A program made the translations under genes and the position numbers. Below are positions 38,840-41,800 of a stretch of DNA of 64,000 nucleotides, piece by piece; the first letter of the stretch is position 1, and every line of letters starts with the position of its first letter. The stretch lies in the NCBI GenBank assembly GCA_036803685.1, contig DAIRTX010000010.1, positions 2,074 to 66,073 of the forward strand. Reading direction: 5' to 3'. The stretch comes from Verrucomicrobiota bacterium. Lineage in GTDB: Bacteria; Verrucomicrobiota; Verrucomicrobiia; Limisphaerales; UBA11358. The notes below the pieces were generated by a model that saw nothing but the letters and a program-made list of their open reading frames with translations, was not told the origin of the DNA and searched no databases.

Positions 38840-41800
38840 ATGTCCCTTTGCTTGGCGCAAAACGCGGCAGCGTCGGCGACAAGCAGCTTGTTCGCTGACA
38901 TCTCGAAAGCTCCCGCTGTGCAACGCCTTGCGCGGCGACTGGAGAATGGTGGAGTGTTGGCTTGCGCGGGTGTCAGCCAGGCGGCGCAGCCGTTTTTTGC
39001 GGTCCTGCTCCGGAAAATTTTCCCGCGCCGCCCGATTGTCGTCGTGACCGACAACCTCAAGACGCAGGAAAGTTTTCAACAGGACTTGGAGACGTGGCTC
39101 TCGCTTGGTCGAGAGTCGAGCATCGAGGGTCAAGGGCAAAACGGTCCCGGCTCTCAACCCTCAACCCTCAACCCTCAACCATTTTTCTATCCCGCATGGG
39201 ACGTGCTGCCGCACGAGGGCAAACTTCCGCATGCCGACACCATCAGCGACCGGCTCCAAACGCTCGTTCAGTTGTCCGGACTCTCAACTCTCAACCCCAC
39301 GGCGCGCCGAAGCGGAGCGAAGGCGGCTCAACTCTCAACCTTGGTAGTCACCAGCGTCACCGCGCTTCTGCAAAAAACTTTTCCACCCGGTGAAATTCAG
39401 AAACGCATCCGCGCGCTTGCCCGCGGCGATAAAATTAATCCCCTCGACTTGATCGAATGGCTTGAAGAGCAGGCCTACGAACCGGAGGCGCAGGTCACGC
39501 AGAAAGGTGACATCGCCCTGCGCGGCGGCATTCTCGACGTTTGGCCGCTCACCAGCCCCTGGCCCGTGCGATTGGAATTTTTTGGTGACGAGCTCGAATC
39601 GCTCCGCCATTTCGATCCGCTCACGCAAATTTCGCGCGAAGAAATTTTGAGCGTCACCCTGCCACCGGCAGGCGAACTGGGAATTCTCAAAAAAATGAAG
39701 AATGAAGACTCTCAACCCTCAACCCTCAACCCGCAGCCTTGTCTGGCCACCCTGCCCGACTATCTGCCACCGGAGACAATTTTTCTCCTCTGCGAACCGG
39801 AACAACTCGCCACCTGCGCCGACGAATACGCGCAGCAAATCCCCGAAAACGATCCATTTTTCATTCCTTGGACTGATTTCCGCGCCCAACTCGACCGGAA
39901 AGCCATGACGCGGCTCGAAGTGAGCGATGCTGATGTTGGAGTTCAAGCTTCAGCTTGTTCCCCAGACAAGCTCAAGCTTGAACTCCAACGCGCCGAATTG
40001 GAATCCGGCGTTCCAGCTTTTTCCTCGCTCGACGCCTTTCGTCCGCTCGGCGAACGCGCGCCCGACCCGCAAGTCGCCGAGGCGCAACGCCGCGAATTTT
40101 TCAACCAGCTCCACCGCTGGTTGCGGCAAGGTTACGCCGTTCATGTCTTCTGCAACAACGACGGCGAGCGGCAGCGTTTCACGGAAATCTGGAATGAATT
40201 GGGCTTGAGCCGGGAGTCGAACGTCGAGAGTCGAGAGCCGGATTTCGTTCAGCCCCCGACCCTCGACCCCCGACCCTCCACTCACATCGGCACGCTTGCC
40301 CGCGGATTTTTTTGCGAAGAAGCAAAACTCGTCGTCGTCACCGACGCGGAAATTTTTGGCCGCTACAAAATTCAGCGACCACGCCGGTTGAAATCCTCGC
40401 ACGCGCTGGCCACCCGTTCCGCCCTCGACATTGATTTCACCGAACTGGAAGAAGGCGACTTTGTTGTCCACTTGCAATACGGCATTGGGAGATTCCTTGG
40501 TTTGAAAAACCTGCCGGCGGGCAGCAGCCGTCATCCATCAACTCTCAACTCTCAACTCTCAACTGGCACGGAGTGCCTCGTCATCGAATACGCGCCCCAC
40601 CATCCCGGCGACGAACCGCCGAAACTTTACGTGCCCGTCACCGAGGCGCATCTGGTCAGCAAATACGTTGGCGTTGGCAAGGTGCGTCCGCCGCTCAATA
40701 CGCTCGGCGGCACGCGCTGGAACAAGGCGAAGGAACAGGCCGGGCGTGCCGTGCGCGACGTTGCCGCCGAATTGCTGCAAATTCAGGCTGTGCGCGAATC
40801 GCAGGCCGGCCACGCCTTCCCGGCGGATGTCCCGTGGCAGCGTGAGTTCGAAGGTTCGTTCATTTTCGAGGAAACACCGGACCAGCTTCGCGCCATCCGT
40901 GAAACGAAGTCCGACATGGAATGCCCCAAGCCGATGGACCGTTTGATTTGTGGCGACGTCGGTTTTGGCAAGACCGAAATCGCCATTCGCGCCGCGTTCA
41001 AAGCCGTGATGGGCGGGAAGCAGGTTGCCGTGCTGGTGCCGACGACGGTGCTGGCGCAACAGCATTTCAACACGTTCCGCGAACGCATGGCTGATTACCC
41101 GGTGCGCATTGAACTGCTCTCGCGCTTTCGCACGCATCGCGAACAACAGCACGTCGTCAGGGATTTGGCGGCAGGCGCGGTGGACATCGTCATCGGCACG
41201 CACCGGCTGATCCAAAGCGATATCGTGTTCAAAGAACTCGGGTTGGTGGTGATTGACGAGGAGCAACGCTTCGGCGTGCTGCACAAGGAAAAGTTCAAGC
41301 GGCTGCGCACGCTCGTGGATGTGCTGACGCTCAGCGCCACGCCAATCCCGCGGACGCTTTATCTCGCACTCACCGGCGCGCGCGACATGAGCACCATCCA
41401 GACGCCGCCGCACGACCGCCTGCCGGTCGAGACCATCGTTGTGCAATACGACGAACGCGTCATTCGCGACGCCATCCAGCGCGAGCTGAATCGCGGCGGG
41501 CAGGTTTTCTTTTTGCACAATCGCGTGATGACCATCGAAACCATGCGGTCGAAATTGCAGACGCTGGTGCCGCAGGCGCGCATCGTTGTCGGCCACGGCC
41601 AGATGGAATCGGACGAGCTCGAGGAAGTGATGACGAAGTTCGTCAACGGTGAAGCGGATATACTGCTTTCGACAACCATCATCGAGAGCGGTCTCGATAT
41701 TCCGAACGCGAACACCATCATCATTGATCGCGCGGACCGCTTTGGTCTGAGCGATCTTTACCAATTGCGCGGGCGGGTCGGGCGTTACAAGCACCAGGCT

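Follow-up and report, generated by a model that had tools for sequence, protein, structure and literature searches.

Introduction

Heptanucleotides are over-represented in the genomes of many bacteria, and their origin by polymerase slippage has been proposed (Rehm et al. 2015, PMC4692102). Between close relatives, the Xanthomonas GGGAATC repeats and the heptamer repeats of Nostoc differ in both length and sequence, and some of them are arranged as inverted pairs (PMC4692102). For the STRR heptamer repeats of the filamentous cyanobacteria Calothrix and Nostoc, the same article cites Mrazek 2007 and a report on Calothrix. In our literature search, no article connecting Verrucomicrobia with such repeats was found. 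Here, we describe heptamer repeats that lie in frame within the mfd gene (transcription-repair coupling factor) of a soil Verrucomicrobium. The window, i.e., the whole stretch of DNA that was analysed, comprises 64,000 nucleotides (nt) of contig DAIRTX010000010.1 (positions 2,074 to 66,073; GenBank assembly GCA_036803685.1). The source is a draft assembly of 3.87 Mb in 183 contigs with 57% G+C, labelled G000 below. The preliminary description of this DNA had pointed out two repeat elements in the part of mfd coding for the UvrB-homology module.

Apart from these tandem repeats, four other kinds of bacterial repeat resemble the locus in some respect. Heptanucleotide contingency loci are exemplified by neuO of Escherichia coli K1 and HMW1A of Haemophilus influenzae, which are surface or host-interaction genes with much longer tracts and single-unit variation between isolates. 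The Rickettsia palindromic elements (RPE), ascribed to the work of Ogata et al. in 2000, are reportedly hairpin repeats that lie in frame in housekeeping proteins, are translated in surface loops, and leave the function intact; they are said to be copies of a conserved family sequence of 100-150 bp. The small dispersed repeats (SDR) of Nostoc, ascribed to Elhai et al. in 2008, are said to be hairpin-like mobile repeats of less than about 30 nt, which reportedly insert into other repeats, heptamer tracts among them, and nest within one another. The REP and BIME sequences, associated with RAYT (Y1) transposases, are characterized in PMC3333891 as short GC-rich imperfect palindromes present in tens to hundreds of copies.

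Hairpin Inserts in the mfd Gene

The two elements are probably translated passenger repeats, which form no part of the Mfd machinery and are local copies of a genome-wide, STRR-like population of 7-nt arrays. The mfd gene is intact (38840..42520 on the + strand, on which all mfd features below are given) and codes for a protein of 1226 amino acids (aa), as determined from the open reading frame (ORF) and its translation. The product is complete. It contains the Pfam domains UvrB_inter, CarD_TRCF_RID, DEAD, Helicase_C, and TRCF, and it matched the Mfd structure 6ac6 in the PDB with an E-value of 2.7e-204. The first element lies in a linker, referred to as site 1, which orthologue comparison places at codons L87-P114 (39098..39181; 84 nt, 28 codons), between the motifs QQDLETW and FYPAWD. 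The hairpin previously described at 39107..39180, with four perfect CTCAACC units as its 3′ arm, was confirmed. Its 5′ arm consists of the units GGTCGAG, AGTCGAG, CATCGAG, and GGTCAAG (39107..39134). The spacer or loop is GGCAAAACGGTCCCGGCT (39135..39152), which is common to the relatives L021, L023, and L026. The 3′ arm, (CTCAACC)x4 (39153..39180), was detected by TRF as a period-7 array of 4.0 copies with a score of 56 and 100% matches; it is translated into a 10-aa peptide. Each unit of the 5′ arm complements the 3′ arm except for a C opposite A. The double unit CTCAACCCTCAACC was found 13 times in the window when up to two mismatches were allowed, against an expected 0.23, and none of 100 shuffles reached 13.

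A BLAST search of hairpin 1 against the genome matched the CTCAACC arm alone (query 48-86), and the loop and the 5′ arm are unique. The CTCAACC-type array of the 3′ arm recurs at about 30 other genomic places. The possibility that hairpin 1 is a multicopy element resembling a MITE (a miniature transposable element with inverted repeats) was ruled out because the array arm alone recurs; for the same reason, it has no RPE-like family structure. Hairpin 1 is similar to an RPE in being an in-frame, translated hairpin insert in a loop of a conserved protein. It differs in that only the heptamer array is common between loci, and the period of 7 is kept while the sequence turns over.

Folding of hairpin 1 depends on the strand. 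The antisense RNA folded with -49.1 kcal/mol (z -7.15), and none of 200 shuffles was as good, whereas the sense RNA folded with -29.3 kcal/mol (z -2.82). A second in-frame, translated hairpin, found by TRF and folding, pairs a GAGTCGA-type arm with a CCCYCGA-type arm (hairpin 2, 40214..40278); it gave -55.8 (z -7.4) for the antisense and -32.6 (z -4.1) for the sense strand. The earlier statement that G-U wobble improves pairing on the antisense RNA thus stands, but it does not hold as an argument for such an RNA. In L021, L023, and L026, the nearest relatives with the same loop, the hairpin is perfectly Watson-Crick paired, with GGTCGAG against CTCGACC or TTCGACC, and it folds better on the sense strand (-51 vs. 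-44 for antisense). In G000, all four units of the 3′ arm are CTCAACC, compared with CTCGACC in the relatives; therefore, the change was homogenised across the array. As read from the sequence, four C-to-T changes in the 5′ arm would restore pairing, and two of these would create in-frame stop codons (CGA to TGA and CAA to TAA). For this reason the 5′ arm was unable to follow the 3′ arm, and pairing on the antisense strand alone is explained by a changed 3′ arm whose compensation is blocked by stop codons. The reverse scenario, in which the 5′ arm was once GGTTGAG and its TGA was mutated away, was ruled out, as the relatives indicate that it was the 3′ arm that left CTCGACC. Judged by these comparisons, the antisense pairing of hairpin 1 is not evidence of an antisense RNA.

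The hairpins could also be functional RNA structures, acting in cis on the mfd mRNA as an attenuator or in its stability, or marking a G-U-pairing antisense RNA. The very strong antisense folds of both hairpins fit this explanation, as does a U-rich tract (the FFYP codons) 3′ of hairpin 1 on the sense strand. We consider it very unlikely. No promoter-like site was found on either strand between 38600 and 40800, and no Rfam match was obtained. The same-loop relatives prefer the sense fold, ten orthologues have no insert, and many orthologous inserts keep the period of 7 without arm complementarity. The strand asymmetry is accounted for by the blocked compensation together with the A+C-rich sense composition of in-gene arrays, which is described below.

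Site 3 (39694..39732; TRF) comprises (AATGAAG)x2.1 followed by (CTCAACC)x3.1 and encodes a 14-aa peptide. A further array, (TCAACTC)x3.9, was detected by TRF with 100% matches in the CarD/RID region (40538..40564), where the orthologues differ; it encodes a 10-aa peptide. Translation showed that the peptides quoted in the preliminary description for both elements are correct. In an AlphaFold2 model of Mfd residues 1-333, built with 48 orthologues (predicted template modelling score 0.74), the inserts fall in low-confidence coil. The predicted local distance difference test score was below 50 at residues 101-109 and 151-156 and amounted to 54-57 over residues 281-300.

Element 2 and the Dispersed 30-nt Stem-Loop

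The second element (39281-39340) had been described as a 60-bp unit with direct repeats around a GC-rich core. The direct repeats and the core are present, but the 60-bp unit is not. The segment consists of CTCTCAACTCTCAACC, then 30 nt, then CTCAACTCTCAACC. Accordingly, the left half of a heptamer array (CTCTCAA, CTCTCAA, and CC; 39281..39296) and its right half (CTCAACT and CTCAACC; 39327..39340) enclose a GC-rich stem-loop of 30 nt, CCACGGCGCGCCGAAGCGGAGCGAAGGCGG (39297..39326), which encodes a 10-aa peptide. In the close relative L027, site 2 is an uninterrupted (CTCTCAA)x4, i.e., an empty site, and L001, L022, L002, and L029 contain the same array plus 30 nt. A 14-bp target-site duplication around the core was also ruled out, given that the array measures 30 nt in L027 and 60 nt in G000 and that removal of 30 nt restores the 7-nt register. 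The sequence therefore shows element 2 to be a CTCAACY array of four units, interrupted by a distinct stem-loop of 30 nt that belongs to a dispersed family. Element 2 as a whole gave no hairpin fold on either strand (z +2.1 and +2.3).

The core of the 30-nt family, CGCGSCGAAGCNNNNCGRAGRCGG, was found in the G000 genome in 69 copies at up to two mismatches and in 110 copies at up to three. Watson-Crick pairing holds for the stem pairs 1-24, 3-23, 4-22, and 6-20 in 66 or more of the 69 copies, and the closing pair (0-25) covaries, being T-A in 24, C-G in 22, and G-C in 13 copies. When the flanks of each copy were joined, at least 14 of 21 lag-7 identities were observed in 14 of the 69 copies, compared with 0.13% of random sites. 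This joined-flank test replaced a separate 21-nt flank window, which was too strict (0 copies scored). In the six clearest array-embedded copies, the best excision length was exactly 30 nt, and it is because of this length that the element is frame-neutral. Seven of the 69 copies are nested within another copy, and 26 lie inside genes. The element is also present in the site-1 hairpin of other lineages, where it is read in all three frames and yields the peptides LARRSEAKTA (L022, L025, L029), LAAPERSEGG (L033, L036, L064), and CRAGAKRRR (L036). Its distribution in the order is patchy. Exact hits numbered 25 in G029, 9 in G282, 7 in G247, 4 in G252, and 3 in G278, with none in most genomes, and 200 other genomes of the phylum gave stray single hits only. 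No Rfam family matched the element.

The SDR of Nostoc reportedly share with this element, for which both empty and filled alleles were observed, the small size, the hairpin-like form, the location in heptamer arrays (here 14 of 69 copies), and the nesting (here 7 copies). They differ in phylum and presumably in sequence, and the present element is exactly 30 nt long with more than a third of its copies in genes. The REP/BIME sequences are likewise GC-rich imperfect palindromes in many copies, and the G000 genome does contain nine Y1_Tnp ORFs of the IS200/IS605 or RAYT type (e.g., C70:3610-3957 and C5:43419-43760). However, the 30-nt element was found within 2.5 kb of only one of the nine, none of which is convincingly linked to it, and a link to RAYT/REP was ruled out on this basis. 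The intragenic copies also set the element apart from REP/BIME, and a preference for heptamer arrays as insertion targets is not known as a REP trait. Two more family copies were noted in the window. One (about 24213-24236) lies inside another copy, whose 5′ half, cttgccgcgccga, is just upstream. The other (about 29457-29480) is located about 30 nt from a tRNA gene (29507-29579).

Heptamer Arrays in the Genome and the Coding Filter

Perfect runs of at least three units show that the genome favours a period of 7. There are 115 such runs, compared with 15, 17, 7, 1, 1, and 0 for periods 5, 6, 8, 9, 10, and 11, respectively. With TRF, 546 arrays of period 7 reached 2.5 copies or more, and dozens of units are represented among them. 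They fall into more than 25 unit families, of which that of AACATCG occupies 50 or more loci and that of CTCAACC 30 or more. Nowhere in the genome is a perfect heptamer run longer than 37 nt, which is about five units. Genes were called with a crude program of our own, which placed 81% of bases in 2797 genes and makes the coding and non-coding counts approximate. By these calls, 286 arrays lie in non-coding DNA (about 19% of the genome), 198 inside genes, and 62 across gene ends. The density of arrays is about 6-fold higher in non-coding DNA. Like the STRR and GGGAATC repeats, these arrays consist of tandem 7-nt units of several families, occur at many loci in excess over the neighbouring periods, are mostly intergenic, form some inverted stem-loop pairs, and vary at the same position between close relatives. 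The differences are that the host is a soil Verrucomicrobium, the arrays have 3-5 units, dozens of unit families are present, and about one third of the arrays lie in frame in genes. In addition, the G-quadruplex idea put forward for GGGAATC of Xanthomonas is inapplicable to CTCAACC.

Many intergenic copies are long hairpins with heptamer-array arms and variable loops, e.g., (AACATCG)n-loop-(CGATGTT)n. A role of these hairpins as terminators was ruled out, as their frequency per kb was 0.19 between convergent, 0.21 between divergent, and 0.35 between tandem genes. This lack of enrichment at convergent gene ends also speaks against a functional RNA. The mfd hairpins were not flagged in a consensus scan. 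Two other clusters were observed in the window: a heptamer-arm hairpin in which (GAAATCC)x8.4 faces (TTTCGGA)x4.4 (13508-13654), and the adjacent, unrelated arrays (AACATCC)x5.4 and (ATCACGC)x4.7 inside a called gene (16647-16726).

The appearance of arrays in genes follows from simple arithmetic. Since 7 and 3 are coprime, translation passes through all seven codon phases once an array has three or more units. All frames of one strand give the same cyclic heptapeptide (STLNPQP for CTCAACC), and therefore only the strand matters. A frame preference (STLNPQ), considered as a signal, was rejected as meaningless on these grounds. If a stop codon occurs in any of the phases, the strand cannot be part of a coding sequence; GGTTGAG, the complement of CTCAACC, contains TGA. 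In agreement with this, 190 of the 198 in-gene arrays have a sense strand without stops, and in 71 of these 190 the other strand contains them. The A+C content of the sense strand of in-gene arrays is 0.572 against a background of 0.506 (split 128:64, p 4.5e-6), and intergenic arrays are symmetric (142:140). The encoded peptides are rich in Ser, Arg, His, Pro, Asn, and Gln and poor in Tyr, Trp, Ala, and Gly. In genes, only stop-free orientations survive, arrays with A+C-rich sense strands and polar peptides predominate, and lengths have to be multiples of 3. In-gene heptamer clusters fold better on the antisense strand in 66 cases and on the sense strand in 30, compared with 97 vs. 81 for control windows. 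Although this excess counts in favour of a functional RNA, the antisense partner of an A+C-rich sense strand is rich in G+T and gains G-U pairs, and the general bias is explained in this way.

Variation among Orthologues and Close Relatives

The mfd N-termini of 100 orthologous loci were compared; related genomes supplied 20 of them, and metagenomes of peat and soil the other 80. Among the metagenome loci, the highest identity was 86%, and a 90% protein cluster was used for close comparison. In every one of the 100 orthologues, a single frame runs through sites 1-3. The site-1 linker, measured from QQDLETW to (L/F)FYPxWE, ranges from 5 aa (LGxSP, CTBGGYNCNTCRCCG) to 64 aa. As had been suggested, the inserts occupy positions where other Mfd proteins have short linkers: 10 of 94 orthologues possess only an LGxSP-like stretch of 5-7 aa. 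Identity within the site-1 insert is about 0.5-0.7 at lag 7 and about 0.25 at lags 5, 6, 8, and 9. The units themselves vary by lineage (GGTCGAG/CTCGACC, AGTCCAC/CCATCCT, GTGCGGA, GAAATCC). Complementarity of the arms has been lost in many lineages (z near 0), but the period persists within each arm. When mapped on a tree built from the conserved columns that flank the site (94 rows), the empty state required 9 changes and the three-state character 19; as this tree has a weak resolution, both counts are upper estimates. An empty allele can be sister to a filled one, as in the case of L017 and L092 (97% support in the Shimodaira-Hasegawa-like approximate likelihood ratio test). The 15 nt of the empty linker form a short palindrome of their own, GGCG-N3-CGCC or a variant with GGT...ACC (L092, L098, L011, L009, L010, L043, L061, L071). 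The Gly, Ser, and Pro codons may produce it by coincidence, or hairpins may use it as a seed or target when they grow.

The 90% protein cluster of the G000 Mfd has five members, with an overall protein identity of at least 93%. One of them, P0005, comes from a different assembly; it departs from the G000 protein at a single residue, and its arrays are the same. For P0002, the overall identity is 96% and the helicase core shows 0-1 differences per 100 residues, but site 1 is occupied by an unrelated heptamer hairpin. P0003 and P0004 have a third site-1 hairpin, no 30-nt element, and 7 extra residues at site 3. The differences within the cluster concentrate in the first 200 and the last 136 alignment columns; this clustering at the alignment ends suggests recombination mosaics. 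At the DNA level, site 3 is (AATGCAG)x5 in L024 and (AATGCAG)x2 in L021 with identical flanks, a difference of three units, i.e., 21 nt, that preserves the frame. The comparison of orthologues proposed in the preliminary description thus revealed real repeat variation among relatives. Together, the mfd heptamer inserts look like tolerated passenger DNA with a quick turnover between near-identical strains.

Chance low-complexity sequence or an assembly artefact has practically no probability of explaining the inserts. The genome is, it is true, a metagenome-assembled draft in 183 contigs. However, shuffles never reached the observed counts, the independent assembly behind P0005 encodes identical arrays, and the same kind of insert is present in 100 orthologous contigs from other samples.

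We also weighed the idea that mfd is a contingency locus, in which slippage by one unit switches the gene off and on and reversibly alters transcription-coupled repair or mutagenesis. Its arithmetic, put forward in the preliminary description, is correct: the gain or loss of one 7-nt unit would shift the frame, as a one-unit change does to frame or expression in neuO and HMW1A, where the unit likewise lies in or near the coding region. Unit number does change over evolutionary time (L024 vs. L021), several repair genes in the window carry arrays, and mfd is dispensable in model bacteria. No sign of such use was observed, however, and we find the idea highly improbable. The tract in this housekeeping repair gene has just four perfect units, and the 37-nt maximum means that the genome contains no long slippage-prone tract. 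None of the 100 orthologues is frameshifted at the arrays, no allele differing by a number of units other than a multiple of 3 was found in those or in the five cluster members, and the sole difference in unit number amounts to three units. The nearest variant, P0005, has unchanged arrays, and arrays occur in many kinds of genes at a lower density than in non-coding DNA. The only disrupted relative is G018, whose mfd (L101, G018:C8:98900-102700) is split into two frames at about nt 1080-1100 by one extra base in GATCCGGAAGTCGCTC. This 1-nt indel is located about 50 nt downstream of the site-3 array and involves no unit change; by its sequence, the split gene may be either a pseudogene or an assembly error.

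Elsewhere in the locus, a tRNA gene (42574-42647) lies directly downstream of mfd. The peptide of a C-terminal linker of Mfd (residues about 1085-1115, window 42092-42184) matches G000:C19:21069-21161 with 70% identity and was also matched outside mfd in G004, G017, G001, and G022. It looks like another dispersed, translated GC-rich repeat family.

Discussion

The observations made in the preliminary description of the mfd locus were confirmed, and its interpretation is partly supported. What is new here is the array-targeting 30-nt stem-loop with its empty and filled alleles, the 3-unit variant, and the account of the antisense asymmetry. In our reading, element 1 is a hairpin of 4-unit heptanucleotide arms filling a surface linker of the UvrB-homology module, and element 2 is a 4-unit CTCAACY array in the next linker with a 30-nt stem-loop inserted in its middle. 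The array population to which they belong is located chiefly between genes and also in permissive protein loops. Units may be gained, lost, or converted, while outcomes that break the frame would not be retained, and the 30-nt element presumably inserts into the arrays. Whole linker alleles may be swapped by recombination between close lineages. The antisense-biased pairing would be a by-product of the coding filter.

Several observations weigh against reading the inserts as mere passengers. Perfect runs number 71 inside genes (37 of them of at least 28 nt) and 38 between genes (8 of at least 28 nt), a trend opposite to that of the imperfect arrays, which are far denser between genes. Passengers that are purely deleterious would not be expected to show such an in-gene excess, which may point to active homogenisation or to a recent origin. 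The higher density of arrays in non-coding DNA depends on the crude gene calls, and the N-terminal tree is weakly supported, with 40 of 91 branches open. Moreover, the commonest length of site 1 is 28 aa (84 nt), and site 2 is fixed at a 15-aa stretch (four conserved residues and an 11-aa array) in 54 of 75 orthologues; both could reflect selection on linker length. These two lengths are also an argument for adaptive linkers, i.e., for repeat-encoded peptides selected as flexible spacers of a given length in the Mfd N-terminal module, and the polar, predicted disordered character of the peptides agrees with it. This explanation nevertheless seems decidedly unlikely. The ten orthologues without an insert and the Mfd proteins of solved structure manage with short linkers, the peptide sequences are unrelated between near-identical proteins, and it is the 7-nt periodicity of the DNA that is conserved, not the peptide.

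The arrays are internally homogeneous while the length of the slot is kept, and perfect arrays are commoner in genes, which leaves room for an active homogenising or array-writing process. In a stronger form, the arrays, instead of arising passively by slippage, could be substrates of a dedicated machinery working in a 7-nt register, which would write or homogenise them without a change of length and direct the 30-nt stem-loop specifically into them. This would make a two-tier system that rewrites linkers between strains more than 98% identical elsewhere. We regard such a machinery as a tentative and rather unlikely possibility.

With the passenger reading, simple rules account for the look of repeats in genes, and they replace the attractive, though unsupported, idea of a phase-variable mfd. 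The heptanucleotide-repeat phenomenon known from cyanobacteria and Xanthomonas is extended to soil Verrucomicrobia. The array-targeting 30-nt stem-loop, with both of its alleles, and the natural 3-unit and whole-linker variants provide handles on the mechanism. For annotation, such peptides in proteins of the Planctomycetes-Verrucomicrobia-Chlamydiae (PVC) group are to be read as repeat-encoded linkers and not as motifs.

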